The notes beneath the pieces were generated by a model. It worked only from the letters and a program-made list of their open reading frames with translations. It searched no databases and had not been told where the DNA came from. Below, one piece after another: positions 3,276-64,000 of a stretch of DNA of 64,000 nt. Position numbers and translations under genes: made by a program. Numbering within the stretch: the stretch's first letter is position 1; every line of letters begins with the position of its first letter. The DNA lies in NCBI GenBank assembly GCA_050084515.1, contig CM114271.1, positions 22,134,001 to 22,198,000 of the forward strand. Reading direction: 5' to 3'. The stretch is from Blasia pusilla. Its lineage: Eukaryota.

Positions 3276-4240
3276 GGCATTCGGGTGTTGGATCTCTTTG
3301 GAGGGATCAACACTAGGTTAGCTGTTGTTTTGCACGTTGGAGTGCACATTCAGCAGAACCTCTATGTGGAGATTGATGATGTTGCGAGGCGCTTCACTTC
3401 ACCATGTTGAGTTGTTACGCCTCCATTTTCCCGACTTGTTGTTTGCGTCCACCATTCAGGGTTACCAGAGTTCTCTACCAAGGGACATTTCATTGTTGGG
3501 GGTGCAGGACTTGGATCGGGTAGGGACCATAGACTTGGTCATTGCTGGTTGGCCGTGTCAGGGCCAATCGAGTGATGGACGAGGTAGCGGGTTAGCTGAC
3601 ACTCGGTCGAGGTTATTTAGGGAGATGATGCGGATCTTGCGATATTTACAAGTGCATCAGTCTCATTCTCCAACATACATTTTGGAGAATGTGCCAATTT
3701 TGGGCAATTTGAGGTCCTGTGCGGTGACGAGTGCACATCAAGTGCGCGCATGGATCGGCCCAATAGCGTTGTTAGATGCGGCGAGTGTGGGTTCACGAGC
3801 ACAACGCCCGCATCTTTGGTGGACCAACTTGGTACCACATGAGGTATTGCGGAGGGCTTATGCGAGAGTGGAGCGTCCCTTGGTGGATTCTATATTGGAT
3901 CCGGGCCATCGATCACAGGCAGTAAGGCATGATGATCGACCGTCGTTGACTGAGGTCAACAAGATTGGCATGCCACGAGCCGCCTTTCCTTTCACATTGG
4001 TGAGTTTTCCCGCTTCCTATGCATTCAAGGAGGCTGGACCTAGCTTGCTTTGGGATGACTAGGTATAGAGGTTGGTGGAGCCCAATGACGATGAGCGAGA
4101 GCAAGCGATGGGATTCCCCACAAGAGTCACTATCGAAGGTATCACGACGTCATGTCTTGGATCAAGCAATGGACTTGAACTGCTTGACATGGATTTTCAG
4201 CTTGGGAGTAGCTGAGCGACTTCATTTGAGGATGCGATAG
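3276..4240 (+). pseudogene. C5-cytosine DNA methyltransferase domain within pol (copy 1), DNMT3-like motif order
   Basis: Motif I VLDLFGGI, II YVEIDD, IV DLVIAGWPCQG (catalytic PC intact), VI YILENV, VIII RAQRPHLWWTNL, IX EREQAMGFP, X SRRHVLDQAMD. Frameshift near 3400 and stop at 4060. Confidence 0.92.
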
Positions 4241-7530: not shown

Positions 7531-7540
7531 AGGGGGGCGA
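7531..7540 (+). promoter_or_regulatory. Polypurine tract, copy 1
   Basis: AGGGGGGCGA directly before repeat B1. Equivalent tracts at about 25920-25928 and, on the minus strand, about 34055-34065. Confidence 0.8.
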
Positions 7541-8314
7541 TTGGAGATATTTTGGTACTTCTTGTCTCATTGTTTGGATGCCATGAGTTACCATGGGATT
7601 GTGTGTGTTTGTGTGTGTGTTCGGTGACAGCGATGTATGTTGTGTAGCGATGTGTGTACGCACGACAACTGTCACGTCTTTTAGGATAGATGGGTGAGAT
7701 CTAGTAGAGTGCGCTTGTGAGTAATGGAAGACGTGCTCAGTAGGTTGAGGATGACTTGTTGAGGCCCCGAGAAACCTGAGCGAGCAGGTTTCCCCTTCGT
7801 TTCGGCTGATTTGGAGCCATATTGAGGAACTTACTATTTTAGGTAAGTTCCATTTTGAGTATATGAACGACTTGATATTTTTGGTAAGTGACCCTTGACC
7901 TTCTACATCAGGTCAAGAGCCAAGGAGGTGACTTGAGAGCGTAGGTTACCATGGAGAGAGCTTGGGAGAGGGGAGGGGTATACCTCAAGGAGAGAGAGCT
8001 TGAGAGCTCATTCTCTCTTTGTTGAACCTCTTGGCATGAGGCAGCGGAGCTATGGTCTTGCTTGCCTTGTGTGTGTAATCCAAGCCTCATATTAGGAGAG
8101 TGGGTTTAGTTTGACATTGACAGACAAATGTGATAATGCACACATATGAGAACTATAGTGTTGTGAGAGAGATTTGATCTTATTTTATTCGAGATATTTT
8201 GGTACTTCTTCTCTTGTTGTTTGGATGCCATGAGTTAGCATGGGATCGTGCGTGTTTGTGTGTGTGTTCGTTGACAGTGATGTATGTTGTGTAGCGATGT
8301 GTGTGCGCACGACA
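7541..8314 (+). repeat. Split terminal repeat of copy 1: B1 (7541-7667), AC, A2 (7670-8187), B2 (8188-8314)
   Basis: B1 and B2 are 127-bp direct repeats (TTsGAGATATTTTGGTAC...GCACGACA). A2 starts TGTCACGTC and is homologous to 21538-22046 (minus) and 26059-26567. Confidence 0.92.
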
Positions 8315-12271: not shown

Positions 12272-15200
12272 ATGGAGTATTCCTCTACAACAATCATAGG
12301 CGAGAAGCTAGATAAGCAGAATTACAATATCTAGAAGTTTCGCATGAAAAAATTTCTCATGGGTCAAGAACTATGGGAGCTTGTCATATATGATGAGGCC
12401 AAGCCAGAAGGTGACTCTCCAGACTTGAATGTTCGTGCCTGGAACAAACGCGCAAGACAAGTAATCCACTACATTTCAATAACGATCAGTTTTCCAATGA
12501 TATGTCATATTCAAGATGTTGATACTTTGAAGAAGACCTGGGATGCATTGGAAAAGCTGTTCCACACATCTACCAAGACCAGAAAGGTTTAATTGAAACA
12601 GCAATTGAACGAAGTGAGGAAAGGATCTTGGAGCATCAATGATTATATTTTGAGTATCAAACACAATGTTGATCAGTTGAATAACATTGGACTGACAGTA
12701 GAAGATGATGATCTCATTTTGTTCACTCTTCAAGGCCTTCCAAAGGATAACAAGTCCTTTGAGACCTCTATCTCTGTAAGAGAAAAGTATCCAACCTTTC
12801 AAGAGTTAGTTCCTCTGTTAATCACTGAAGAGATGCGCCTAGTAGGCAGCGGTATCTCGTCTAGTCTGCAAGAGAGTGCGATATTTGCAAGTTATGGATC
12901 AAACAAAGGTAGGGGTTATGGCAAAAATTTTTGTGGTCATGGTGGATATCAAGCATATGGAGGAAGAGGCACTCAATATAACGTCCCTCAATCAACTACG
13001 AACCAGTACTAGACATAATCACAAAGTGGTGATGGTGGAAATCGTAGAGGTCAAGATCAGCAGCAAAGGGTCCTTGGATCTTGCAATTATTGTGGGATAA
13101 AAGCTCACTATGCAAAGTTTTGCTTCAAGAAGAAGGCACATATGAGAATAGGAGCCTTACAACGACAAAACTATGTGGAGCAACAACACCAAGAGTAGTA
13201 CCAAGAACAACAACATTCACAAACGGAACATATCTTGGTCATGACTCGTCATATGGGAGCAATGGTCAAGAAAGACTCGACAACAGATTGGTACATTGAC
13301 TCTGATGCATCAAATCACATGACCTCACAAGCTAAATGGTTCAGTAGTTTGGAGCCGGTGAATGATCCTTCAATTGTTCTCATAGGAGATGACACTCAAC
13401 ATCATATCATGCATACCGGTAAAGCTCCAATAGCATCATATGGTCTTCGGGCTTTTGGAAATGTTCTCTATGTTCCTACCATTGCAAGAAACCTGATCTC
13501 TATAGGAGAGATAGTAGAACAGGATTATCAAGTGAAGTTTAACACAGATTGTTGTTTCATTCAAACAATGGATGACTAGACTACGATAGCCAAAGGAACT
13601 AGATCTGGAAGAATGTTCAAATTAGATGTTTCTATGCTAAAGATTCAAATAGCAATGTATGGTCAAACCAACCAACAAGTCACAAATCTAAATGTGTGGC
13701 ATAAAAGAATTCGACGTATGAATCTTCAAAGATTACAGAGTCTTTCATCATCTAATATAGTAATATGACTCCCTAAATTAGCAAGTCTTGCTACGTTAGA
13801 GGTATGTCCTGCTTGCTAATTTGGAAAACAAACTAGATTTCCTTTTCTAAAGCAAGATAGAAGAGCATCCAGGATATTGGAGTTGATCCACAGTGACAAC
13901 ATCACAACATAGCCTTAGTGGTTGCCAGTACTATCTTTCATTTATTGATGACTTCTCTAGGTATATATGGGTATACTTTCTAAAAGCTAAGTCAGAGGTA
14001 TTCTCAATGTTCCAAACATTGAAAGTTCTAGTAGAGAAGCAAACTGGAGAACACATTCTGAAATTGGAGGAGAGTATGTCATGACCATACGGATTATGTC
14101 GTAGAGTATAGTGTGCTAGTAGAGGCCATATCTTATGTAGGGCCGCAGTCTCTAGGTAGAGATGCGATTTCATACATAGGGTTGGGGGTTACTCAGTTGA
14201 GGGTGACTTTTCCAGTAGGGCCCGCTCTTAGGTTGGAGGATATAAGGTGGAGTACACTCAAAGAACAGTTAGTTCTTTGAGTTGAGCCTGTTGCGTTGGG
14301 AGTTAGCCTTGGTAGTGAGTAGAGCTCTTGGCTATGGTGTTTTCCGCAAGCTTCGACCTAGATTCTCCCATCGTGGAGTGGGTTTGGCTTGATTCTATGT
14401 GATTCTATACGTGTTTTATGAGAGTAGGTCTTTCACGAATTTCTAGTTGTGGTACACTTGTGTTTGTGGATGCTCTCGTCTATGTTATGTATGTATGTGA
14501 GTATGATATGTCAGCGATGTATGTTGTATGACGATGTGGACTCGCACGACAAGTATCTTTCAATAGAGTTTGATGACTATTTACTTCAGAATGGCATCCA
14601 ACGTCAAGTGACTTGTCGTTATACTCCACAAGAAAATGGAGTGGCTAAGAGAAATAATCAACATATTTATGAGGTGGCACAAGCTATGCTCAATGAGAAG
14701 AACATACCTAAGGTGTATTAGGCAGAGGCTATAGCATGTGTAGTCTTCTTAATCAACCAAACTCTAACAGTAGGAGTTCATGATAAAACTCCATTCGAAG
14801 TCTTCATAGGAAGTAAACTTGATTTTTCCTTCTTGAAAGTTTTTGGTTGTATTTATTATGCTCATGTTCCTTGTGAGAGACATTAAAAATTAAACCCCAA
14901 GTCTAAAAGATGTATCTTCATTGGCTATGCTGATGGAACTAAGAGGTGTAAGTGCTACATTCCATCCTCTAGGCAGCTTATTATTAGTCAGGATGTTGTC
15001 TTTGATGAGCTAAAGTCATGGTATGCTCCATCTGAGCCTATTCCATCTCTAAACTTGACTATTGAGGGGGAGAATATGACTTTAAACCAACAGACATTGT
15101 CTTCAACTTTCCCAAGTACTAGTACAGGATTAGGAGAGGCCCACGATTCTTCAGTTAAATCTATGAGTCTATGGACGGGAAGAGTACGTATTCAGACTCT

Positions 15201-20200: not shown

Positions 20201-21537
20201 CTACCCAATACCCGGAAATCCCTAACACGTGCACGGAAAAAGACCATGATGGGTAACCTGAAAATAATGTCGATGTTGCTCCTCAGCAACCGTAAATCTT
20301 GACCACAACTCGATTGTGAAGACAAACTTCTCCAAATAGCACGTTGTACTCCCCTGGTAGTGACGATGCTCAAATCTCCTTGATGTGCGGTGTGGGTCCA
20401 ACGATATGGTGCGGCACTAGCGGCACGAAATGGCTACAAACGGCTCGGGAATGGGGTGCGGCACTCAACGGCATATCCTCCTCAACAGTAATACAAAATC
20501 TGCGGTGAGGGTGCAGCTCCATGATAGAGATGGTGCGGTGCGGCCACGAGCAGTAGGACGCGGAAATCTCCTGCGCGTTGCGACTACGGGCTTCCACCTC
20601 AAGACATAGCAAGCCGGGAAGAGAAATGCGACCCCATCAATCCAAAAAGGTCACCGTCCAATTAACAACGGTGAAGAACGCCGTCGACGGCGGCCAACGG
20701 ACGGAGCAAGGACGGCCCCTATGGACAATGAAAGTCAATAGTAATTACAATATCTTTCATGTGGGTAAAAATGGTTCTACTTTGGCCTTATTCAAAAATT
20801 GAAAGTTCTTTGTTTTTTCCCACTCCACTAACTCCTTAAACTAAGGGTCAACTCACTAAAATTACTCACATTTAGCTTATACTCCACTAAGCCCTATAAA
20901 TATTGGGTCAACACCCACTAAATAAAGTTTCCACTCACTTTAACCTCAAGATCCTAAGTTTCACTTGTCCTTTCTCCACTAATAAAAGATATTTTTTAAA
21001 ATTTTCTACCTCACCTAAAAATTTACCAAGAATTTTGAAATTTGCTCCTTCCTCATACGGTGGCTATGGCAGCTCCACAAAAATGATCATTACTTCTTGC
21101 TCCCATGTTCAAATTGTGCATAGTTTCCCAATCTACAACATTGTTAAATCAGCTTCTTCATACAACCTTCCAATAAAAACTCACAAGGATTGTCATGCAT
21201 CCCTTCAATCTGCACTCCTACAAAAACTTCAATAGCGCTTCCGCGCTGATTTCTCCCAACAAAAATTGCAAACCTGTAAACACAACAACCAGCAAGCTAG
21301 AAGGTACTCCCAAGAGCACTAGCATGGGACAAAAAATCCCCATACTCAATTTCTAACAAAATTTTGGCAACGCTTCCGTGTGCCACTCTCCCGTACAAAA
21401 AATCATCAAAGGAATCAGCAAAATTGAGCGGCTCTTGCTCTGGTGAGCACTCCCATGAACTGCTGAATGGGGAATACAGTCCCCAACCTGCAACAAGAGC
21501 GAGTGACCAGCAAGCTCCCCCATTGAAACTCTCTTTG

Positions 21538-22046
21538 TAAATCAAGTAGATCTCTCATCAACATCTCACACCAAGCTCTCCTTGGTATACACTCTCTCTC
21601 ATGTCAAACCAAACCCACTCTCCTAATGAGAGGCTTAGGTTACACACACAAGGCAAGGAGGACCATACCTTCGCCGCCTCATGCCAAGAGGTTCAACAAA
21701 GAGAGAATGAGCTTTGAAGCTCTCTCTCTTGGAGATATACCCCCTTCCCTCTCTCAAGCTCTCTCCTCGGTAACCTATGCTTGCAGGTCACCTCCTTGGC
21801 TCTTGACTAGCTATAGCGGGTCAAAGGTCACTTCCCAAAGTGGAAAGTCAACTATACTCCAATGGAAACTTACTCGAAATAGTGAGTTTCTCTATATGAC
21901 TCCAAATGCACCAAAAAAAAGGGAAAACCTTATGTCTCAGGTTACCCGTGGCCTCAGCAGATCCTCCTCAACCTCTTGAGGCTCTTCTCTAGTATCTCTG
22001 AAGGCGCTCTACTAGATCTCGCTGATCTATCCTAAAAGTGGTGACA
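21538..22046 (-). repeat. 5' terminal repeat A1 of copy 2 (no B segment)
   Basis: Homology to A2 of copies 1 and 4 stops at ...TGATTTA, exactly where B2 begins in those copies. Confidence 0.9.
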
Positions 22047-24195: not shown

Positions 24196-26699
24196 CACCA
24201 CCTATCCTTTGGGCTTGTTGGCTATGGAGAGCCAGATTGCTGAGACTTCGATGAGGAGGTCTGATGCAAAGTCCTTAGATCGAGAGGCGGGTGAGGAGAA
24301 GATAGATGACCGAGACATTCACGAGGATGGAGTACTCTTGGAGTACCTACGTATTGGCAGCGTCGCGAGCACAATGGGCAGTAGAGAGCGGGATCGGATC
24401 CTATAGCGAGCCACACGGTTTCGGTGGGAGGGGACACATGTGTTGCGAGTTTGGGAGGATGGTAGAATACGTGTAGTGCCTCATCCTTTAGAGAGAGCAC
24501 GTTTGGTGCGTCATGCCCACAAGGAGTTTGGTCATTTTTTAGTGAAGCGGACGTACAACTTGCTCTAGATACAGTATTAGTAGCAAGGTATGGAGATTGA
24601 CATTCAGCAGTTTGTTCCCAGGTGCGTGGTTTGTAATAGGGTGTGGGCATCGTTCAATGCTCTGACTCCATAGTTGCATCCACTTTCGATCATGGGTTTA
24701 GGTTATAGATGAATTTTGGATTTTGGAGGACCCTTACCTTTCACGGAGCGCCATAGTTGTTATGTTTTGGTGATGGTCGAGCACTTCTCAAAGTGGATAG
24801 AGTTGGTTGCATTGCTTGACAAAGCGAATGAGGGAGTCACGTATGCCTTCCTAGATTGAGTGCTGAGTCATTACAACGCCCCAGATGAGGTGTTGAAAGA
24901 ACAAGGTACGGAGTTTCACAAGAGTTTCAAGCCTTGTGTGATTAGGCGCTGACTGACCACCGCACCACTTCGCGAGATCATCCTAAGGCGGATGGACTAG
25001 CGGAGAGTGTTGTACATACGGTGAAGAGAGGATTACGCAAGTATGGATTGCAGAGAGATCAACTAGGAGATTGGTACCTTCATTTTTTGTGGTTAGCGAT
25101 GGGATACACATTGAGCAAGCAGGCATCCTTAGCGCCTTTTTCACCGTACTTGCTGCTTTATGGCCGAGAGCCAGATTTACCTGTAGCCATTCGTCGAGAT
25201 GTTGGTAAGGTGTTAAACCTTGATGACCCGGATGTATGCATGGATGCAAGCATGTTCTCACACGACTGAGTTGTTTAGGAGAGTGATGCCCATGGCATTT
25301 GAGAACTTGGCGATTGCGCAACATCGAGATACTTTGAGGTATGCCACTATTTAGGAAGGTGGTTACGGCCCTACTATCCGTAGGTTTCATAAGGGAGACT
25401 ATGTCTACTTGCAATAGATGGCACCCATGATATTGGATATAATTGCACGACACACTATCTTGAGAATGCGTGACATTTTGCCATTTGGTATTCTCTTATT
25501 GGAGGAACGCGATGGTATGGTTTGAAAGGACCATGTGCGTAACTGTGCGCCATGTCACCTTCCAAACATTGACGGTACAATTGATTTGAGCTTAGCAGTA
25601 GTTCCTACAAGTTTGCAATGTATGTTGTGTGATTCCGCCCGTTGTGCAGCCACCATGCTAGTTTGTGATGGGTGTTCGAGAGGGTGGCATATGGCATATA
25701 TGTCTGACACCACCTCTCATGAGGGTTCCTCGGGGATGATGGATGTGCCCCAAATGCACATAGAGTAGGTAGTTCTAGATTTCGACTTGCGTCTATGACA
25801 TGGATGACAAGAAGGCGACATGAGCACCCGACCTTTTTGCTCTTAGCGTCCGAGAGATGTATGTCATGGTAGGTAGGAATAGATGGCTATCTGGAGTTAG
25901 AGGAACCTAACCACCAGCTAGGGGAGCAATTGAAGATATTTTGGTACTTCTCATCTCGTTGTTTGGATGCCATGAGTTAGCATGGAATCATGTGTGTTTG
26001 TGTGTATGTTTGATGACAACGATGTATGTTGTGTAGCGATGTGTATGCGCATGACAGTTGTTACGTCTCTTGGGATAGATCAACAAGATCTAGTAGAGCG
26101 CCTTTGAAGATACATGAGGACATCCTCAAGAGGTCGAGGATGACTTGCTGAGGCCTCGGGTAACGTGCGAGAGCAGGTTTCCCCTTCGTTTCGGCTCATT
26201 TGGAGCAATGTTGAGGAACTTACTATTTTGAGTAAGTTTCCATTTGTGGCATAGTTGACTTTCCACTTTTGGAAGTGGCTCTTGACCCGCTACAGCTCGT
26301 CAAGAGCCAAGGAGGTAACCTACAAGCATAGGTTATTGAGGAGAGGCCTTGGGAGATGGAAGGGGATATACCTCCAACAGAGAGAGCTTGAGAGCTCATT
26401 CTCTCTTTGTTGAACCTCTTGGCAAGAGGCGACAAGGTTATGGCTCTCCTTACCTTGTGTTTGTAACCCAAGCTTCTCATTAGGAGAGAGGGTTTGGTTT
26501 GACATGAGAGAAAGTGCACACCATGGAGAGCTTGGTGTGAGATGTTGAGAGAGATTTGATTGATTTATTGGAGATACTTTGGTACTTCTCGTCTCTTTGT
26601 TTGGATGCTATGAGTAAGCATGGGATCATGAGTGTTTTTATGTATGTTTGGTAACAGCAATGTATGTTGCGTAGCGATTTTATATGCGCACGACAAGGC

Positions 26700-31132: not shown

Positions 31133-34100
31133 AACAATAGGTCCCGAGAGCAATATACATTATCATGCATGATATTAAAATTTACCAGAGAGAAATGTAA
31201 GGAATCAGTTCGTCACTAGGTCCGCACGTTGGTCTCCTAACAGACTCGCCGAGCTACTGTCGCAGTGCCGCCACCCGAGCATTGCCACGTAGCAGCGCAA
31301 CCACGGTGCCACCTCCTTCCCACGTCTCCCATGAGTCCTGACCCGCCCTCGATGCAACTCCCTGAGTTCCCGGAAGGTCTGCAACCCTCCTGTCGGTTTC
31401 CCGTCCCGTGAAAGCCCCGCGGGAAGACGCCGACGGTTACCAAATATGAGTTATTCTCCTTGCTAGGAACTTTCGCCGACTAAGTCTTACCGGCACCCAG
31501 TCACTTTCAGGAATATAACGACCGGGACGGCCGGCTACAAGAACCACATGTTTCGTCCTTTCGGAATCCGTGCCGGAGCTTGGAAGCCGCGATCGGGACT
31601 TATCGTTTTCTCCCGGCTAGCTGAACATAGAAGTCCGACTCTAGCGGACTATGGGATGGAGACGTCAGAAGTTTAGGTGGATGGATTCATCCCGCACAGT
31701 CGCATGACCAGGTATCTGGCCAGCTTTCGGTCTTGGAGCCTTCGACCCTTGCGCCTTGGTGATTGAATGTACCTACACGCAGGGAATTTATCTTGTCAGC
31801 CTCGCGTTACGTAGGTACGGTAGCCCCCCACAAGAAGGGCCAGGGATTCTATGTCAGTGTGGACCCCGCCATTTCAGTAAAGTACTCGTTCTTTACTCAA
31901 ATTCCTTCCCATCTTTGGGGACGTGATTTGGACCTTTACTTTTCGTGCGACAAAATATTCGAAGTTCGAACGGATTCCATTCGCCGTGCTTCGTCAAGTC
32001 GATGTAAAATGCTTCTGTTGCCCCGGCGTTGGCTACGCTTTAGTGCGCCGTGGGACACTACCGTTAGTGTCCCACAACCGGTAGATGCACACTCGTGATC
32101 CTTTAGTGGGCGATCTGTTTCATATCTATTTCGTAATCTTATCACAATTAGTCTAACTAGTCGTGAACTAATACTTGTTATACTTCTTTTAAAATTACAC
32201 CAGAGAAGAATTTGTGTGGAATGCATCCTGAATATCTTTTTAATAACACTAGTGAGAATGCGTCAATTTTTAGTACATAAAACTCCCTCGTTACTCAGTT
32301 TGGGCTTTTCTCTTTTCATCGAGGAGTGGGAAGTTTACACACGTCGAGGGAGAACCTTTAATTAGGTCTCTGCCCATTGGAGATAATGAAACAGAGTGAT
32401 AGAAACAACTTTTTTGTACTGAATTGAGTTGTTTGGGTGGTATCTCGAACAGCAGGCAGCTTGCTCGAAGGTGAAAGTTGAGTTGTTCTTGCAACGTAGT
32501 ATTGGAAACCTTGTAAGTATTCAAACAATGAGCACCTTTCGTCTAGAACTACCGCCCAAAGCTTCGTGATTCATTGGCCTCAATTGGCTGGAAGCGTAGA
32601 CTTTTACCGTTGCACGGGCATTCTCACTCTAGTAAGAATGGCCGTGCGATGCACCGGCATCAAAATTTAGCATATACAAAATTAATCATATCAATTTTTT
32701 TTCAATGGATGAAGTATTACAAAGTCTAAAAAGCATGCCAATATAACACTTGACACATGTAATGTTATTTTAATTTTAATTTAGCACTTCATTATATACA
32801 ACATTCCTAGTGTAAATACCTATTTTGTTAATAGCCTTTTCATTATCTGTCATAATATGAATAGAATTCCTCGAGCCTACTCTTGACAAGGCAACATACA
32901 ATTGCCCATGAGAAAATACTGGATTAGGCAAGTAGATACCAACTCTATCTAATGTTTGACCTTGAGACTTGTTAATCGTCATTGCAAAAGCAGGACGTAT
33001 AGGAAATTGAAATCGTCGCAAATCAAATGGTAGGCAAGAATCAGACGCAATCAATGGAATGCGTGGAATGAAAACTCGAGCTCCGATGTTTTTTCTAGTG
33101 ATGATTTTTGCATCTATAAGATGTCTACTAAAGCCAGCTATCACCAGCCGAGTCTCGTTTGCTTGTCCCTTGGCTCCATTCATATTCCGTAATAGCATTA
33201 TCGGAGCTCCAATCTTCAAAGTCAAACAATGAGGTGGCAGTCTAGATGGTAAACATGTGTTCAAAAATTCTGTTGGATAAACAAGTCTCATCTCATCGTC
33301 GGAAACGGTATCAGCACTCAAGAAAGTATGCTCTTGCAAAAACAATATAAATCATTAATGATAAGAGCGATGATAGAAAAATGTAGCAATAGGTAATGAA
33401 AATATAATAATGATATTCAAGAACATAAATATTACCTCTCCTGGAAATCGAGACATGATTTCCGCATTTATAATATCTGTCGTGCGAATCCACATCGTCA
33501 TACAACATACATCGCTGACATACCATACTCACATATATACATAACATAGACGAGAGTATCCACAAACACAAGTGTACCACAATTGAAATCCGTGAAAGAC
33601 CTATTGTCATAAAACACGTTTACAATCACATACAATCGAGCCAAACCCATTCCACGATGGGAGAATCTAGGTCAAAGCTTGCGGGAAACACCATAGCCAA
33701 GAGCTCTACTCACTACCAAGGCTAACTCCCAACGCAACACGCTCAACTCAAAGAATCGTTGTTGTTCTTTGAGTGCACTCCACCTTATATCCTCCAACCT
33801 AAGAGCAGGCCCTCTTTGGGAAAGTCACCCCAACGAGTAACCCCAACCCTATGTATGGAACCGCATCTCTACCAAGCCACTACGGTCCTACATAAGGAAT
33901 GGCCTCTACTAGCACACTATACTCTCGACATAATCCGTATGGTCATGACAATTGTCGTGCGAATCCACATCATCATACAACATACATCGACATATCATAC
34001 TCACATACATACATAACATAGAGGCGAGTATCCACAAACACAAGTGTACCACAACTCGCCCCCTAATCGGCGGTTAGGTCCCTCTAACTCCGGTAGCCCT

Positions 34101-34224
34101 ATACATCTACTACATGCTATACACCTTCTTGGGTGCCGAATCGAAGGCCGGGTGCTAGGTTGCCCCATCATTAGTCGCACATCGTAATCCATATCATGCA
34201 AAGATCAAGTCATCTACCTCTCCT

Positions 34225-35500
34225 AAGTACATCGAGAACAAACCCACCTTCCAGAGGAACAACATCCATACGTGAGTCAAACACATCATGTGCCAACCCC
34301 TAGAACACCGATCACACACCAACATACGGGCTGCGTTACCAGCAGACCCACACAACATGCACCTCAAGCTAGCATGTATCATGGCTAAGCTTGGGTCAAC
34401 AGTACCATCCACATTTGGAAGATGACATGGCGCACAATTACGCACATGGTCCTTCCAAACAACTCCATCACGACCCTCCAACATGAGAACTCCAGAAGCT
34501 AACACCTCGCGCACTCGTAAAATAGTGCGGCATGCCGTCACATCCAACGTTGTCGGTGCAACTGCTGCAAATAGACATAGTCCCCACATGGAACCTCTGA
34601 ATCGATGGTCGATAACCTCCACCCGAATGGTTGCATACCGCAACGTATCCTGTGTTGAGCAATGGCAAGATTCTCAAAGGTCGTTGGCATAACTCTCCGA
34701 AAGAGCTCCGTCCGCTAAGAACACACCCTCATCCACATCTCGGGTCATCAAGGTTCACCACCTCACTAGACTCCCACAATTGTTCTTTGGCAAGTTTGGA
34801 TCTCGGCCGTATAACAGAAAATAAGGTGAGAAGGAAGCCAAGGATGCTTGGCGATCGAACCTATACCCCATGGCTAACCATGGCAACTCGAATATCCAGT
34901 CTCAAGATGCCCCTTCAGAGGCCATACTTGCGCAATGCCCTCTTCACCGTCTGAACCACACACTCGGCCAAACCATCGCCTCTGGATGATCTCGAGGCGT
35001 GGTCCGATGATCAATCAACGCCTTGTCACACAAGACCTGAAACTCACCTTGAAACTCTGACCTGGTCGGTCAAGCACTTCATTTGGTGCACCAAAATGAC
35101 TAAGCACTCTATCCGAAACGCATCGCCGTTCCTCACTTTCCTTGTCCGTAATGCCACCAACTCAATCCACTTGGAGAAGTGTTCCACCATCACCAACACA
35201 TATCGATGATGTAAATACCAGTCCATGATATGATCCTCCATAAAGTCCACACTCCAACGGTAACCCAACCCCATAATAGGCAAGGGGTGTAATTGTGGTG
35301 TAGGGGCATTAAATGATGCCCTCACCCGGTCATAAACCATACAACGTGACACCAAGCTGCTGCACCTGAGTATGCATGCCACGCCACCAATCTTGGCCAA
35401 GGAGTACGCTATACGACGCTTTACCCCAAAATGTCCCAACTCCTCATGGGCATGTCGCACAATGCGCTCTCTCGAGCCAAATGTGGCACTACTCGTACTC
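34225..35500 (-). pseudogene. Integrase plus PHD finger (copy 3)
   Basis: RHAHEELGHFG, WSVDF, VEHFSKW, TDQ. PHD CMLCGSAGNAARMLVCDRCSRGWHMMC. Confidence 0.9.
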
Positions 35501-36232: not shown

Positions 36233-36718
36233 TCAAAACCATCTGCAAATGTATCGATGCTCCTCCACCGTGTTCTTGAACACCAAGATATCATCAATGT
36301 AACACCGAACAAAATCCAACCCCGCTAGGATCCTGTCCATCACTCTTTGAAACTCGGCAGGGGCATTCTTCAACCCAAAGGGTAAGAATTTCCACTGGTA
36401 AAAACAATCCTTGCCATGAGAGTTGACACCCAAAAATGTTGTCTTGGCCTTGTCACTCTCCCAAATCGGCAATTGATGGTATCCTGCCCGAAGATCCAAA
36501 GTACTGAAAATCTTTGCCTGTCCCACCACATCAAAGATCTCCTCAGGTGTAGGCATGGCATACCTATCGACCTTGGTTTGCCGATTAATAGGACGGTAAT
36601 CTCCACACATCCGCCTATCCATGTAATTGCCATGCATATCCTTTTTAGCAGGCATGATAGTGGCTGATGCATACTCTCCATGCGACAACTCCACTAATCC
36701 AGCCTCCAAAAGGTCCAA
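36233..36718 (-). pseudogene. Reverse transcriptase core (copy 3)
   Basis: RMCGDYRPIN, LDLRAGYHQ, LPFGLKNAPAEFQ, CYIDDILVF. Confidence 0.95.
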
Positions 36719-36819
36719 CGTCCTACTCTAAGGATGCAAAATACTACTCTCCTCGCCCCCAGCCGATGCCTCTACCGTCCCGGTAGCCATCGAGCTCATT
36801 ACAAGGGGTGGAAGACCCA

Positions 36820-37800
36820 CAGACATAGTCCGAAGTCGACGCTGCTCGGCCATACCAAGACTCAAAATCCAAGTCAAACAATTCAGGTCCATGGCCTGAC
36901 CCAACACATGACGTCGTGAAGCCTCAGAAATAGAAGCAACCATTGTCACACCAGTAGCAAATCCCATCGCACGCTCTCTCTCATCAACATTAGGCTCCAC
37001 CAACTGTCGCACATGAGAATCCCATACAAGCCCCGGACCACCTTCCCTGTAGGCATATGACGAGGGAAAACTCACAAATGTGGGTAGTGCATCCTAGGCT
37101 GGCCCACACGGTTCACCACTGCCATGGGTGACCGATCAATAACCCTCACCACTTGAGAAAGTCGCCCAAGATATCAAGATACTATCCATTGTAAGGCGAG
37201 GATCATTTGCCTTTGCATCATATGCTCGATGTAGAACCTCCTAGGCAACAAGTTTGTCCACCACAAGCGTGGGCGATGTGCCGTGAGCCAACTCGTTGCA
37301 TCCAACAACACCGCTGGTCCAATCCAAGACCGCACCTCATGAACACTCGCCATCATCCGGTCCGAGTACCCAACAATGGAACATTCTCGGAATGTAAGCT
37401 AGAGCACGTGCTCGATGAACTGAAGATGTCGTAACACCCGTAACATCTCCCAAAACAATCGAGACCTAGGGTCATGTAATCCCTCACCACGACCAAAGAC
37501 GTGTATGACCCCACGATATGGCCATCCAAAGCAATCACCAAATCCAGAGGACCAACCCTCTCAAGGTCCTGCGCCCCCAACAATGCAATGTGTGATGGTA
37601 AAACGCTTTGGTACCCTGAATAGCTGATGGCGACAACAACTCAAGATATCTCGCATCAATCGACCAATATGTCGGGATGAGACTCTGGGCCGTCTCATCT
37701 CGCTCCACATACACGTATCTCCTCAAGACAGAATACCGGCTGCAACATCTGACCAAACCAAGTGCTAATCCCACCAAAGAGATCTAACACACAAATGCCC
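36820..37800 (-). pseudogene. C5 DNA methyltransferase domain (copy 3), frameshifted
   Basis: VLDLFGGIST, YVYVERD, GPLDLVIA, ENVPLLG, AHRPRLWWTNL, ERERAMGFATG, SRRHVLGQAMD. Confidence 0.9.
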
Positions 37801-38064: not shown

Positions 38065-39009
38065 TTACCCTCCAAAAGTCTCTGGCCAAGTGACTACTCC
38101 ACTAAAACCAGCCACAGATGCTAACACTCTTGGGGAAGACCCTCCTGGTCGAGCCCCAGAAATAAATCTCACAGGAACTTGGCTCATACGTCTATCCTCG
38201 GATTTCCAACCAGGTCTATAAGATGCTGTCTCAGTCCAGTAATCCATCTGAAAACCCATCAGGTACAATACTGCTCCTCCAACTAGTACATCATACGACT
38301 CGGCTGATGTGACTACCGCAGATACTCCCAACCGGGAGCTATCAGTCGCATGATCTGGTCTCAACTGTACAGAAAACTTCTCCCGTGTCATGAATTGAGA
38401 CCTATCATTGGCTCCTCCAAGTGATGTTTGAATCTGGAATGGGCAAGGCTCAAGCTCTGACCTCCGAATACCCAAACCAATACATGCCGCCTTTCCCAAC
38501 ATCAAAGGTTGGGCACCAGAGTCTAACAAGACTCTATCTGGTCTATACACCTGTCCTATAGGACTCACCAATCGGAAGATCCCACTCCGGTTGTCCAACA
38601 TACATACACCAAGTGTAAGCCTCTCACGATCAATGGCTGGCCGGGCTGGTAATGCATCCATCTTCGTCGCTGTTGCCTGCCAAGTAGCACTAGTACTCAA
38701 TGCTACACTTGACATAGAGGGTCGCTCCACCGCAACATCCTCATCCACCTCAACACGTGTAGCAATAACACCCCCACGTTCACACAACGTGGCTGCTAGC
38801 TGAAATACAGGAGCTAAGTCAACTCCTAAAGCCATCAGCTCCGTGGCCGAAAATAATGGGGATCCCAACACTGAAGTTGCTATCCGCAATACTGCACTGG
38901 ATGCTGCATCTGTGTCTACTACACGCAATGTAGATGCCTCAGTCCCCACTGTCGGCTCAATAGGCTGCATAGGAACCATGGATGGAGTCCTAAGCACCTC
39001 AGACAACAA
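38065..39009 (-). CDS. Retrotransposon aspartic protease-containing ORF (copy 3)
   Basis: VLLDSGAQPLMLG (D-S-G active site) and YDVLVGGAVL; 314-aa open frame. Confidence 0.85.
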   Translation of the reverse strand: MLSEVLRTPSMVPMQPIEPTVGTEASTLRVVDTDAASSAVLRIATSVLGSPLFSATELMALGVDLAPVFQLAATLCERGGVIATRVEVDEDVAVERPSMSSVALSTSATWQATATKMDALPARPAIDRERLTLGVCMLDNRSGIFRLVSPIGQVYRPDRVLLDSGAQPLMLGKAACIGLGIRRSELEPCPFQIQTSLGGANDRSQFMTREKFSVQLRPDHATDSSRLGVSAVVTSAESYDVLVGGAVLYLMGFQMDYWTETASYRPGWKSEDRRMSQVPVRFISGARPGGSSPRVLASVAGFSGVVTWPETFGG

Positions 39010-39043
39010 GAATGACTAGGGAAGCCTAGCCTGCCTCCCAACC

Positions 39044-40666
39044 TCACCCCTCTGTGGGTCCAACTCCACAGTAGCACCATGTGGCTCGACCGCTCGAGTG
39101 GCTCCTCTCGTAATGGTGATGCCTCAACTTTGTCTTTGCTTTTCGCCATATAAGAGAGATCATCCCCTCCATAAGAGGTGGAAGCCCCTGCTCCCGAACT
39201 GATCTATCTTTGGATACCGACCATAGTAGCCAACTCGCTCCAATCTGCTCAATCCTGGCAGCCATAGTTGACTCTGTCGTAGTGGTAGGGGTAGCCACCG
39301 TAGGCTCTCCAACCACTGGTCCACCTCTACCACCCCTACCACCTCTACCACCTCGGCCTCTCGGAGCTACTCCACCACGGCCACGGCCTGATCTCAACTC
39401 TGGATGAAGATCAAAGCAACGCTCTCGAGGATGACCGGGTCTCCCGCAATGATCACACTGAGTTGGGGCCGACTGAGGCCCATCCTCCAAAGTCCGTCTC
39501 CCATCCTCTTGGCGACAAAACTTCCTAACATGATCACCTCCGCATGTTTAACATGACTGTCCTTGCTGCGGGGCAGCAAATGAAGGCAATGGTCTCTGCG
39601 CAAGTGTCCCTCTAGGACTTGACTGAGGTCGTATGTACCCCCCACGACTCCCACTACTACTACCACCACCACTACTACGAGACTGTGAGGTGGGCGGCTG
39701 AACACAAGAAGTAGTAGTTGTATCCCTACTGAAAGCGGATGTCACCACTCTCTCCTTCACCATGTTAAGCTCAATCTTCTCAGATAGAGCAAACACATGG
39801 GTCAATGTGGGTGAATCATCACTCATAAGAGTAGCATCACGTACCCTACGACGCAAATCTCTATCCAAGATCCCATACCAAAACTGGACTGCCTGATCCT
39901 CAATCACTCCCTGGGTAACTTAAATCAAGCGTCGCATACGAGTGTATGCCTCACGAAGACTCTCACCAGTCTTTTGCTCAAAGTCCTGAAGATTCCTCAA
40001 CTTCTCCGTCTTCACTCCCTGATAGTTCTTCTTCAACCTCTTGAAGAACTCTGCAACCGGGCTGAACGATGGTGGGGCACTAGTACCTCCACTAGTACCC
40101 CCACTAGTACCTCCACTGGTATCCCCACTCCAGCTCGTACTCGTACCACTCAACGTCGGGCTGGCTGGCATAGTAGGAGCACTACTACCAATACCACCAT
40201 GGGTGATAGACACATAGCCTGGACACCAATATTGTCTCCACGCCTCAATCTCAGCAACATGGTCTTTCCTAAACTCATGGTAATCATCCATGGGTGGTCC
40301 TTCAAGTCTTTGAAACAACCCCTTCAAGCCAAGAAGGGTGTAAACAACGTGGCGTTCATAACATCGCATATCACACCACGTATCAAACTCCTGCATAAAG
40401 TCCTCCAACTCAATGGTGCCCACTGCACCCGAGTATCGTCGTGGGCCCTTCATGGCCCCATATCCACCGTCCATGTCCCAAATCAATGGAGCTGCAACAC
40501 TCGATAACAACGTAGAAGACTCGGTGTTTGGAACACCCTCGTCCTCCTCTTCATCAACTGTCGAAAGTGGAAAAGGTAGCCGATACCTAAATCCACTCCG
40601 TGTGAAACCACCACTGTCCGCACCACGGTCCCCAACCAGACCACCCGACAGCTCCGTGATGACCAA
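39044..40666 (-). pseudogene. gag (copy 3)
   Basis: YSGAVGTIELEDFMQEFDTWC, FEQKTGESLREAYTRMRRL, CCHC knuckles, RGG repeats. Confidence 0.8.
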
Positions 40667-43600
40667 CGCCGATGCCGCACCACCACTAAGTAACCAAGTG
40701 ACGTCGATGTCGCTATACTATTCTAGCTCTACTAGCTATGGGTGTAGGCAACCTAACTTTTCATCACCACAAGAAGTCTCCCACGGTCTACTCGTCATCC
40801 CTCCAGCCTCACTACCGGTAGCACACAGGAGTAACACTACTCTGGAAATCAGCGTCAACCCTAACAATGGGCGCACAAGCAAGAAGCACCGATGGAGGGG
40901 ATCCAAACACAGGAAGTCCAACGACAACCCTCCAATCGCAAATGGAAATCAAGGTAACATAATCCACCAAACGTGGTGCCCCCTGAATCCACAAAACCCA
41001 CCACACAATTCTAACGCAATAGCTACTCCACCGCGGGTCGATAACGTGCTAGTCGAACTCGCAGTACCTGAAAATATCACCTGCATGGAGAGGCTACACC
41101 GTACTATGCGCTAGAGGTACATCAACCAAAAACCTGAGATGCATAAAGCGCCTAACACATCTCCGAACAACACCAAATGAGCTACAACAGTGTGTACACT
41201 GGCATAGTTAAGAACTCAGCAGTTAAGCGTCCTCCAGGCATAATAGCCCAAAGATGGGTGACCAGTTATGCAACACTCAAATCCCAAATCCTGCAAAAAT
41301 TGCCCCACGCCCAAGCAAGCAAGCTTGCTTGCTTGCTCCTTGCTCCTTACTCCGCCTCTCACGCCCACTCGCCCCGAGCTACCACGAGTTGAATCAAATC
41401 TGTTTCGACCAGAATTCAATTGACCACCATAGCTATCTCTCCACAAAAAATCAGCTACAACCGAGCTCTGTACTCCGAGCTAAACATCAGACAAACTTGT
41501 TGTCCATACACCTCCAGAATCGCAAATCCGACAACGCTTCCGCCAAGTTCCATGCAAGCACAAATCCGCAACGCTCCACACACTCGAGTAGATAGCTTCA
41601 CATGAGATCACAATACAATTAGCAACAGGAACCTCTCACCCGATCTGGATGAACTTCAACAGAGTTTCCGCACTCCAAGCTCTCCACATCAGAAAACCGT
41701 CGAACACTAACTAGAATCTTCAATCCTTGATAATTTCCAACTCCCTTGACGAAATCCGGCGATCTAAAGCGCGTTGGAAAGCTCTCAGCATGGCGCTTCT
41801 TTCCCAACCAACACCGCATCAGATTCACACCTCCAAAATAGGCCACAAGCCACAAACATCCACGGCTGAGTACACAATCAGCCCTAACCAGATCCTACTG
41901 ATCTACAATCGAAGCTACCATCGATCTACTGCAGTTCTTTGAGTGAAATCCCTGAAAGACCTACTGTCATAAAACACGTATACAATCACATACAATCAAG
42001 CCAAACCCACTCCACGATGGGAGAATCTAGGTCGAAGCTTGCGGGAAACACCATAGCCAAGAGCTCTACTCACTACCAAGGTTAACTCCCAACGCAACAG
42101 GCTCAACTCAAAGAACTGACTGTTCTTTGAGTGCACTCCACTTTATATCCTCCAACCTAAGAACGGGCCCTACTGGGAAAGTCACCCCCAACTGAGTAAC
42201 CCCCAACCCTATGTATGGAACCGCATCTCTATCAAGCCACTATAGTCCTACATAAGGAATGGCCTCTACTAGCACACTATACTCTACGACATAATCCGTA
42301 TGGTCATGACATATCCACGATTGTATTCTTGGTTGACAAAATGGATGTACCCCTCAAGAAATCAATGTCACTCCACTTATTAACATCGTGTCCATAAACA
42401 ACGTCAATGAGATCATTCATCCTTGTCATTTTTACAATTATCGCATCCGGAACTTCTATAAAATCCTCTCCAAGGTCCAAATGTAATGGCACTCAACCCT
42501 CTCCTATCTCTAATAACCACGTTGCAAACGCTTCTTGCTCTTCTCGTGCATATCCTACGAAAAATATAAGATCAAGAAATGAGTACATATTAAAAATTTT
42601 AAAAAAACACATGAAATGAAAAAGGAAAAATATTAGGTTAATTCTTAAATACCTTGTAAAGTATTAACTCTCATGTTGCTAGTGAGTTTCAATACTCTCA
42701 CGTCAGACCAAATAAGAGATCTCCTCAATGTTGCACGCACAATTGTAGCACGATATCCACGACGAACAACTGGAGGAAGTTGTCAAAAGTCACCACCGAA
42801 TAAAATGATCTTCCCCCCAAAAGGCAAGTCTCGTAATCGACTATCCATCAAACCCATGATATCTTGGAAAGTACGATTAACGACCTCGAATGCATGACGA
42901 TGGGTCATAGGAGCTTCATCCCACACGATCAACTTCACCTTTTGTATAAGGCGGGCCATATGACTATTGATCGATAGGCTAGAAAATAGATAACAAAATA
43001 ATATGTGAGGAACATTTATGAAGGATAAATCTAAGAATATATCAATAATATGCATGCCATAATTATAAAGTAAAAGGAACCAAAATCTTAAATCTAGACG
43101 TACTTGCAAGTGGAGCTTTCATGTACTTGAATAGGAATCTTGAATCGAGAATGAGCAGTACGACCTCCATCCAATAATAAAGCGGAAATTCCTGAAGATG
43201 CAAGTGCAAGAGCTATATGACCCTCGCTTCGTACCATTGCAAGAAGAAGGTTGTACAAAAAGGTTTTTCCCGTTCCGCGAGGACCATCGATAAAGAAATT
43301 TTTTTCCTAAAAATCCATATTTTTAGTGACAAAAATGCACTTTAAAAAGAAAAAAACTTAAAGAGATTTAAAGAGTAAAAAAGTCATCTTAAAATTTACT
43401 ATGCATAATATCCACTTACAGAAGGTGGCGCATCTTGTAAGACATCGCGAAAAGCATTACAAATAACTTCCCAAACAGCTCGTTGTCCATCATTTAAAGA
43501 TATCTCTCTTGCTCTCACACGTTCACAAAGCATATCATGATCGTAGCAGAGCTCTTCCTCTTCTAGACGCGAAATAGATAAATTACGAGTTTGGAAATCT

Positions 43601-62779: not shown

Positions 62780-64000
62780 CTAGATGAACGCTTAATGGAA
62801 GGTGCAATGCACGAAAAATTCAAACAAATTTTACTATTAAGAGAGGTGCTTGCGCGATAAGAGAAACACATGAAAAAAACTTTTCTATAAAGAGCATAAA
62901 AAATATACAAGATTTTTATTTCATAAAAAGAAATTTATACACAACATTTCGAGTGTAATTACCTTTTTCATTGGAATGTGTATCACTACCCGTATCATTA
63001 TATGAATTGAATTCTTTTCTCCTACTCTAGATGATGCAACATATAACTGCCCATGAGAAAGTACAGGTATGGGTAAAACATATTCCAACCTTTCATAAAG
63101 TTTGACCTTGTGATTTATTAATAGTCATAGCAAAAGTTGGACGGATAGGGAATTGGAATCTACGTAAATCAAAAGGCAACCATGAGTAAGAAGCAATCAA
63201 TGGAATATGCAAAATGAAAATTTGATCTCCAATGTTCTTCCATGTAATAATTTCAGCATCAATAATATGTTGCATGAATCCACGCATGATTAGCCGAGTG
63301 TCATTCGCTTGTCCTTTTGCCCAATTCATATTCCGTAAAAGCATAATTTGTGCACCAATCTTCAAACACAAACGATGTGGAGGCAATCCAGAAGGTAAGC
63401 AAGTATCAAGAACTCTGTTGGATAGATATAACTCATTCCCTCATTTGGAACAGAATCAATACTAAGATAAATATGCTCATGTATATAACACAAATTTGTT
63501 AGAAAATATATTCCCAAAAACTTAGTCTAAATTTGTTAAAGTAGACAAAATGAAGTCATTTTCGTTAAGAGTAAGAATAGTAAGAGAAAAAATTAGTACC
63601 TCTCCAGAAAATCGAGACATGACTTCCATATTTATGTCATCAATATCTCTGTTTCTTGGTGTGAGAATGGCCGTATCTCTTAAAAAGTTGATGGCATTAA
63701 ACCTTTGAAGATCATTCTCATGTATCATATGAATAAGATCATTTACATTCTTGCTATGAACAACCATGTTAAACTGCACGGATCATATCTTCTCCCAAAG
63801 AAGTGTGTAATGGCACATGACCCTCTCCAACCTCCAATAACCAATCAGCAAAAGCTTGTTAATCAAAACGCATATGCCCTTCTAAATTTTGAACTCTCAT
63901 GTTGTAGTAAGCTTCATCACCTTTATATGGGACCATAAATTAGATCTTTTTTAAGTGGCTTGGATAATTTTAGGATGATCCCCATGACGAATGATAGGTA
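62780..64000 (-). mobile_element. Second Helitron, 3' part (helicase C-terminus), running off the window
   Basis: ILTPRN, PPHRLCLKIGAQIMLLRN, QFPIRPTFAMTINKSQGQTL. Same intron position as Helitron 1. Candidate hairpin 62802-62812 and CTAG 62780-62783. Confidence 0.85.

Follow-up and report, generated by a model that had tools for sequence, protein, structure and literature searches.

A 64,000-nucleotide (nt) stretch of the Blasia pusilla genome (assembly GCA_050084515.1, contig CM114271.1, positions 22,134,001 to 22,198,000; in the following called the window, with coordinates counted from its first letter) contains Ty3/gypsy retrotransposons of the Gypsy-DNMT3 type (PMC5890265). Self-comparison of the window revealed that their repeats are split into two parts and follow the order A1-coding region-B1-A2-B2. 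For two families in the window, the initial annotation had proposed a primer binding site (PBS) that is complementary to the 5' end of the element's own predicted transcript, as in Tf1, in place of a tRNA primer site. As deduced from sequence comparisons, the elements are very probably self-primed by their own RNA 5' end. Tf1-like priming followed by a permutation of the ends is, with good probability, the best explanation for the arrangement as a whole.

Pairing between the predicted RNA 5' end and the PBS

The family II element is located on the minus strand, and its A1 repeat (U3-R-U5, 41945..42311) is 92.7% identical to A2. As annotated initially, the 13 nt from 41944 to 41932 are the exact reverse complement of those from 42118 to 42106. 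Counted from the first T of the TATA box (42147 to 42142), position 42118 follows at 29 nt and the A at 42117 at 30 nt. This match was reached by none of 20,000 base shuffles of the long terminal repeat (LTR). Two details had to be adjusted. The transcription start, placed at 42118, is predicted more probably at 42117 within the same tract, so that the putative self-primer comprises the first 12 nt of the RNA (42106..42117; 13 nt if +1 is 42118), and the PBS (41932..41944) comprises 12 nt and a 13th base pairing with position −1. Moreover, the motif is not the end of A1: the PBS begins at the first base beyond the end of A as defined by reverse transcription (41945).

The family I copy in the window (minus strand; A1 21539..22046, TATA box 21736..21739) provides a weaker case. 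Its complementarity between 21538 to 21529 and 21705 to 21696 is present as described, but 10 nt by themselves are weaker evidence, being reached by 69 of 20,000 base shuffles, and the copy is defective. It lacks about 18 nt in and after the PBS, leaving the 10-nt remnant at 21529..21538, whereas other copies pair over 13–15 nt. Judging from the latter, in which pairing begins at the equivalent of 21708/21709, the start is predicted at about 21708 instead of 21705, with a 13-nt self-primer at 21696..21708.

To score the pairing per base, 5' ends were taken from the same genome and anchored on their flanks, with a slip of 2 nt allowed. In family II (45 copies from 60 loci), positions 1–10 pair in all 45 copies and positions 11–12 in 42–43, while position 13 pairs in 29, position 14 in one and the U5-side base (position 0) in none. 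Similar tracts were found in family I (18 copies from 30 loci; 11–18 copies pairing at positions 1–15), family III (18 copies from 20 loci; 16–18 pairing at positions 1–14) and family IV (14 copies from 19 loci; 11–14 pairing at positions 1–14). Family IV had been considered as an independent pair and was rejected, its primer sequence being the same as that of family III. Pairing within the own family amounted to 10.8–11.9 of 12 positions, compared to 4.6–6.1 in the cross-family control.

Metagenome relatives, for which 80 of 522 loci were kept (34 of these being scanned for inverted repeats), contributed a fourth sequence pair in locus L278 (66% identity in the reverse transcriptase, RT) and a fifth in a group of seven 5' ends (L307, L311–L314, L317 and L322; RT identity 46–49%), both with the same TATA distance. 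The pairing is also present in a family II-like metagenome group (seven 5' ends). Covariation between two families, on which the initial proposal had relied, is thin by itself; the check for compensatory changes now covers five distinct sequence pairs with the same geometry. In all five, from this genome and the metagenome relatives, the tract begins 30–32 nt after the TATA box. The distance from the TATA T to the tract A is 30 nt in 43/45 copies of family II, 31 nt in 12/18 of family I, 32 nt in 17/18 of family III and 32 nt in 14/14 of family IV.

In line with the absence of a tRNA-type site, also part of the initial annotation, 94 of 95 copies lack the TGG expected at the U5 end; pairing of a CCA end at that place is thereby excluded. 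Within the 64-kb window, no tRNA genes were found. Taken together, self-priming is supported by the cross-family covariation, the fixed TATA distance, the lack of a tRNA-type TGG and the primer copies at the A|B joins described below.

A feature overlooked initially is an 11-bp hairpin in family II (42132 to 42106), in which the 5' arm (42122..42132) repeats 11 nt of the PBS, while the primer sequence itself forms the 3' arm. The 5' arm is located between the TATA box and the predicted start, and pairs with the primer sequence when U3 is present. RNA folding from +1 predicted the primer:PBS helix with median probabilities (P) of 0.95, 0.87 and 0.76; upon addition of 28 nt of U3, these values dropped to 0.04, 0.06 and 0.0 (family II from 0.95 to 0.04). 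The relative L278 folds likewise, its U3 turning the helix off. For the window copy of family I the helix is not predicted (P = 0.0), while intact copies are predicted to form it.

Two observations concern the hairpin itself. In a family III A1 repeat (L206), it has become a perfect long palindrome and the TATA box is lost, which, as judged from the sequence, is a sign of template-switch correction. In family II (L143–L159), the hairpin loops of A1 and A2 of one element are often unequal; these differences may represent long-read errors at methylated sites or a real hotspot. Their interpretation as a strand-transfer hotspot was set aside, because a copy of this kind had served to select the set by similarity and the changes look like errors of long reads.

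Integrase ends, internal junction and A2|B2 joins

The family II element in the window is flanked by identical 4-bp target site duplications (TSDs; 42312..42315 and 33477 to 33474, minus strand). Among 19 family II stretches, four were too short to score; of the 15 complete elements, 12 carry an exact 4-bp TSD around A1...B2, one has a mismatch and two show none. Exact TSDs also flank the window's family II solo unit and one family I element. The TSD encloses A1 through B2, which identifies the start of A (TG, left end) and the end of B (CA, right end) as the integrase ends. Hence, reverse transcription indeed sets the end of A, which had been regarded as the functional end of the 5' repeat, whereas the end used by integrase is that of B.

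Downstream of the coding region, the minus strand carries a G-rich polypurine tract (PPT, 34057..34065), B1 with CA at its end (33953..34056), A2 (33585..33950) and B2 (33478..33584), which is flush with A2 and is followed by the 3' TSD copy (33474..33477). The PPT directly precedes B1 and not A2, and this position was found in every family examined (I, II, III, IV and the metagenome relatives). At the internal B1|A2 junction (33943..33961), the two integrase ends abut with a spacer of 2 nt (33952–33951), forming an inverted-repeat pair of right and left attachment (att) sites. The B|A junction pattern has 1451 exact matches genome-wide, compared to none for the reversed control. The att spacer, in the window as well as in the genome list, is almost always purine-pyrimidine; judging from the letters, its variants are consistent with a deamination of methylated CHG sites in one or the other strand.

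The A2|B2 join is composed differently, namely of U5 up to the base before the PBS and the first base after the PPT. Family III shows this composition without overlap, its joins lacking the first PBS base and beginning directly behind the PPT: of 12 joins, seven are flush, two contain an extra T, two are deleted and one could not be parsed. In a further set, biased by its query, 29 of 30 joins were flush by eye. PBS sequence kept at the join was detected in four family II cases genome-wide, using a pattern that requires at least four such bases. L325 represents a true A2|B2 join with 4–5 nt of primer copy. L326 and L327 are unrelated solo units with different flanks and exact TSDs, each keeping 12 nt, or 13 together with the following base. 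As position −1 is a T in the two units, a 12-nt primer starting from 42117 fits best. The join of L323 keeps 10 nt and that of L324 13 nt followed by a fold-back, whereas in the complex locus L328 the join copies 14 nt of primer-side U3 and not of the leader. A further search gave three matches versus two in the control, the one interpretable row running 5 nt into U3 and not into the leader. Inserts of this kind, which follow the primer side, cannot originate from the deletion of a PBS in the genome.

Solo A-B units with exact TSDs are represented by L323, L324, L326, L327 and the family II unit at 14077..14551 (plus strand) of the window, four of them with primer copies at the join. A part of the solos may have arisen by direct integration of plus-strand strong-stop DNA joined to itself, and not by recombination. 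Furthermore, tandem-type junctions of the order 3' untranslated region (UTR)-B-A-PBS, in which one A is common to two units, were observed at L009, L028, L062 and L135.

The two B|A contexts are used very unequally. In family II, PPT|B|A was counted 501 times and A|B|A once, and this single case belongs to a B-A-B-A-B tail. All 30 unselected junctions have the 3' UTR upstream, followed by A-B in 26 cases, A-PBS in one and an interrupted sequence in three. Random use of a symmetric circle is largely refuted by the ratio of 1 to 501, so that the att pair used would be the one beside the new join.

Proposed replication route and rival explanations

A route consistent with these features would start with transcription by Pol II at about 30–32 nt past the TATA box in A1, at 42117 in family II. 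The first 12–13 nt of the RNA, whose complementarity to the PBS directly after U5 is present in the sequence, would pair with it. Self-primers of the Tf1 type are freed by RT/RNase H-dependent cleavage. By analogy with Tf1, the primer would be cut free (PMC4600332) and would initiate the synthesis of minus-strand DNA from the final base of U5. The strong-stop DNA would then be transferred to R of A2, in which the RNA would end, and the U3 hairpin present in most families would hide the 3' primer copy and leave only the 5' copy free. Plus-strand synthesis would begin at the PPT. Because this tract precedes B1, the product is expected to be B-A-coding-B-A, with B+A as the true LTR. The joins suggest that the ends are subsequently joined head to tail, the U5 end to the start of B, sometimes with a primer copy that was not removed; such joining of the reverse-transcription product is considered likely. 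Finally, within the repeat copy beside the new join, the DDE integrase would cut at the CA/2-nt/TG att pair to give the insertion A-coding-B-A-B, of which the ends and the 4-bp TSD are observed. A plant/algal Gypsy clade in which the RT ends are separate from the integrase ends, and in which end-joined B-A...B-A cDNA is cut at a preformed att-att junction as the normal route, is slightly favoured over its contrary. Only tentatively, the use of a single att pair may be ascribed to a joined molecule that is nicked or flapped, with integrase already placed at its ends.

Transcript data were obtained from three raw ordinary RNA-seq runs from a single study, selected by their species label, together with one contig run. 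On L009 (3' UTR-B-A-PBS), 769, 981 and 795 reads were mapped per run, mostly in sense orientation, indicating that the family is transcribed in these runs. The depth was 81–193 over B, dropped over the last 120 nt of A and reached 9–29 in the leader; reads joining A to B numbered one, zero and five. The fall in depth and the scarcity of A-to-B reads fit an RNA that ends in A2 without B2. In all three runs, reads were also found that jump back 289 nt inside A (L009:1818 to 1530; four, nine and five reads), representing either a partly duplicated copy or circular RNA.

Several results weigh against the proposed route. In the three runs on L009, the predicted start is not among the listed pile-ups of read ends; instead, one lies 33 nt upstream, just before the TATA box (L009:1662, equivalent to window position 42150), with 30 and 26 molecules in two of the three runs. 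It is tentatively read as fragment 3' ends or clipping, because it coincides with the fall in depth. One-sided changes of primer or PBS occur at L223 and L229; the two-sided change of L203 (1 of 20 loci) speaks for the route. The copies were gathered partly by likeness to motifs, and the pairing script allowed its 2-nt slip; the PBS side was unselected in L161–L190 and family IV, while the conservation elsewhere is partly built in by the queries. In family IIb, the PBS complement reaches about 9 nt into the predicted U3, and U3 does not turn the helix off; in folding, L312 and L271 do not behave as L278 does. Family VI has no U3 hairpin, and its joins retain 3–4 more nt of the complementary tract (5/5 examined), by which the primer would there be 11–12 nt of a 15-nt tract. 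Flanking duplexes, as in the three-duplex "pretzel" around the PBS of the Tf1 kind (PMC10085805), spanned 6.3–9.7 nt compared to 7.4–8.5 nt in shuffled sequences, none being clearly above the control in this crude test. Moreover, the asymmetry of 1 versus 501 is not explained by a plain covalent circle.

Part of this evidence would suit a primer that derives from the 3' repeat or from transcripts starting further upstream and is cut at the same place, so that it would not be the capped 5' end. The join inserts running 5 and 14 nt into U3 point in this direction, as does the family IIb complement, which covaries within U3 (L266 versus L271). The base at −1 likewise covaries in family II: A is found at PBS position 13 in 8/17 copies with T at −1 versus 3/26 with C (p = 0.014, for copies that are related), and both variants occur at similar shares in the unphased RNA reads. 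However, the tract starts 30–32 nt after the TATA box in all families, the U3 hairpin would block the 3' copy, two inserts end at exactly 12 nt, and the longer inserts fit a plus-strand fold-back onto its own R. Such a primer is therefore regarded as unlikely. A primer consisting of a tRNA or tRNA half, with the complementarity as a by-product of template-switch mutation, is extremely improbable. Template switching does occur here, as the perfected hairpin of L206 illustrates, and the TGG test covers pairing with the CCA end only, the host tRNA set being uncompared. Nevertheless, the TGG is missing from nearly all U5 ends, each of the five PBS sequences, unrelated to one another, is matched by the R to which it belongs, and Phygy, another non-chromovirus, of a moss, has tRNA-Trp sites unlike these elements (PMC6317226).

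The remaining rivals concern what happens after, or instead of, priming by the element's own RNA. In a DIRS/Ngaro-like replication, the RNA would extend from A1 to B2, the B1-A2 junction would template a circle junction, and the complementarity would reflect RNA structure only. The repeat order is that of DIRS-type elements (PMC5890265), and the B1|A2 junction is conserved. Such a scheme is quite improbable in view of the conserved PPT and PBS, located before B1 and after A1, respectively, the A2|B2 join that fuses exactly these two primer-defined ends, the primer copies at joins, the few reads crossing from A to B, and the DDE integrase in place of any tyrosine recombinase match. Very improbable, in turn, is the same priming followed by a symmetric covalent two-LTR circle that is opened randomly at one or the other B|A junction, the second product being lost. 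The join does resemble a two-LTR circle junction, and HIV-1 integrase can cut a palindromic LTR-LTR junction in vitro; according to the same report, there is no evidence for this in cells (PMC3185514). However, such a circle requires the A|B|A product, which is represented solely by the B-A-B-A-B tail, and the 3' UTR upstream of all 30 unselected junctions largely refutes it unless these inserts are purged almost completely. Self-priming with an end-joined intermediate is retained as the preferred explanation.

Coding region, relatives and significance

The window elements encode gag, protease, a C-5 methyltransferase, RT, RNase H, integrase and a PHD finger, and the domain order protease-RT-RNase H-integrase assigns them to Ty3/gypsy. 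In the family II element (minus strand throughout), a gag and protease region split into several frames (38065..40717; weak Retrotrans_gag match, E = 0.0013, protease by likeness to L278) is followed by a broken DNMT3-like cytosine methyltransferase (37019..37640), detected by tblastn with the family I domain (3322–4059), an RT fragment (36236..36727; RVT_1, E = 5.9e-19), an integrase fragment (35047..35499; weak rve match, E = 0.0012) and the integrase C-terminus with the PHD finger (34197..34673; PHD, E = 2.8e-05). Two family I 3' ends of the order B1-A2-B2 are located on the plus strand, one at 7540..8314, which has an exact 4-bp TSD in common with its own A1, located about 1 kb ahead of the window (L110), and a second at 25929..26695. 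The fragments at 32776–33351, directly beside which the family II element lies, and at 62935–63481 are related to each other; by eye, they resemble the C-terminus of a PIF1/Helitron helicase.

The same domain order was confirmed in the intact metagenome relative L278, whose integrase has an intact zinc finger and a D-D-E core; the best solved match is Ty3 Gag-Pol (E = 4.4e-98). The DNMT3-like domain in the polyprotein region matches PF00145, and for the methyltransferase of L278 the top 29 solved matches are DNMT3A/B/C, ahead of any bacterial enzyme. Together with the DIRS-like repeat order confirmed in the elements, this corresponds to Gypsy-DNMT3. No tyrosine recombinase match was found in the two open reading frames (ORFs) filling L278 or in the window ORFs, and no chromodomain match at the integrase C-terminus in the window ORFs, L278 and the distant relatives, where the PHD finger occurs instead. 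The distant metagenome group (RT identity 46–49%) also carries DNMT, PHD and split repeats, for which reason it was dropped as a Tcn1 control. In two relatives, a single in-frame stop separates the gag-protease-DNMT and RT-integrase frames (L278:5083–5085 and L243:9743–9745); read-through is possible, in which case the DNMT would be on the abundant side. Among the 120 of 680 RT matches listed, named relatives are the liverworts Calypogeia and Marchantia as well as Closterium, and no name of Klebsormidium appears among them.

Gypsy domains within DIRS-like repeats have been described as KnitGypsy-Dnmt3, and the streptophyte Gypsy-DNMT3 elements, a name used in a preprint (10.64898/2026.05.21.726589), share the Gypsy domain set, the DNMT3-like domain and the DIRS-like order with the window families, while the accessible parts of the published text give no PBS, PPT, TSD, att junction or replication model (PMC5890265). 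A literature search, with subscription papers and Repbase notes outside its scope, found no account of priming or integration for Gypsy-DNMT3. Self-priming as such is known: Tf1/sushi is an established case, and a prediction exists for plant Tcn1 and TAR, with self-primed elements accounting for 12% in a plant survey (PMC6317226). Its occurrence in the present clade, as well as the route of integration, appears to be novel. The supplement of that survey lists tRNA-Trp for Phygy and tRNA-Ala for Selgy; compared to Phygy, with its tRNA-Trp PBS and no extra domain, the window families show neither feature. For one lycophyte Tcn1, no evidence of self-priming was reported (PMC2864245).

As in Tf1/Tf2, Tj1, Tf1/sushi and plant Tcn1, the PBS directly after U5 is complementary to the predicted RNA 5' end (PMC10085805, PMC4600332 and PMC6317226). 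Tf1 cDNA retains PBS sequence at its end, and a primer copy can remain there (PMC11042837), as at the joins of the window families. The initial designation as Tf1-like very probably holds for the priming, but the elements are not Tf1/Tcn1 chromoviruses: they have a PHD finger and no chromodomain match, flanking duplexes of the three-duplex kind did not clearly exceed the shuffles, and they differ further by the U3 hairpin in most families, the split repeats and the att sites inside the repeat. Self-priming has also been proposed in plants for TAR, Houba and Osr-1 of Ty1/copia, which belong to another superfamily and have ordinary LTRs (PMC6317226).

The A-coding-B-A-B order, and probably a joined intermediate, are common to the window families and DIRS-order elements such as Ngaro and PAT, in contrast to which the window families have a DDE integrase, a PBS, a PPT and a 4-bp TSD and no tyrosine recombinase match. 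In the circle junctions of IS3/IS911, a DDE enzyme acts on two abutted ends with a short spacer; these are DNA transposons, whereas in the window families the repeat itself passes on the abutted ends, and the new join is found at another place.

Our results extend self-priming to another Gypsy lineage, one without a chromodomain. Self-priming fixes the start of reverse transcription and, together with the PPT, explains a published but unexplained oddity, namely Gypsy genes inside DIRS-like repeats. Programs for LTR detection that expect two TSD-bounded LTRs would misplace the ends of these elements. With at least 1451 B|A junctions in this genome, the family is abundant; it is also transcribed in the runs analysed and has relatives in Marchantia, which makes the model testable. 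If the model is true, the insertion of an end-joined intermediate by way of an internal junction would be the normal activity of a retroviral-type integrase, whereas for the integrase of HIV-1 such activity has been reported in vitro only. In that case, A-coding-B-A-B repeats would have evolved twice, and the mechanism seen here would have no relation to that of DIRS.
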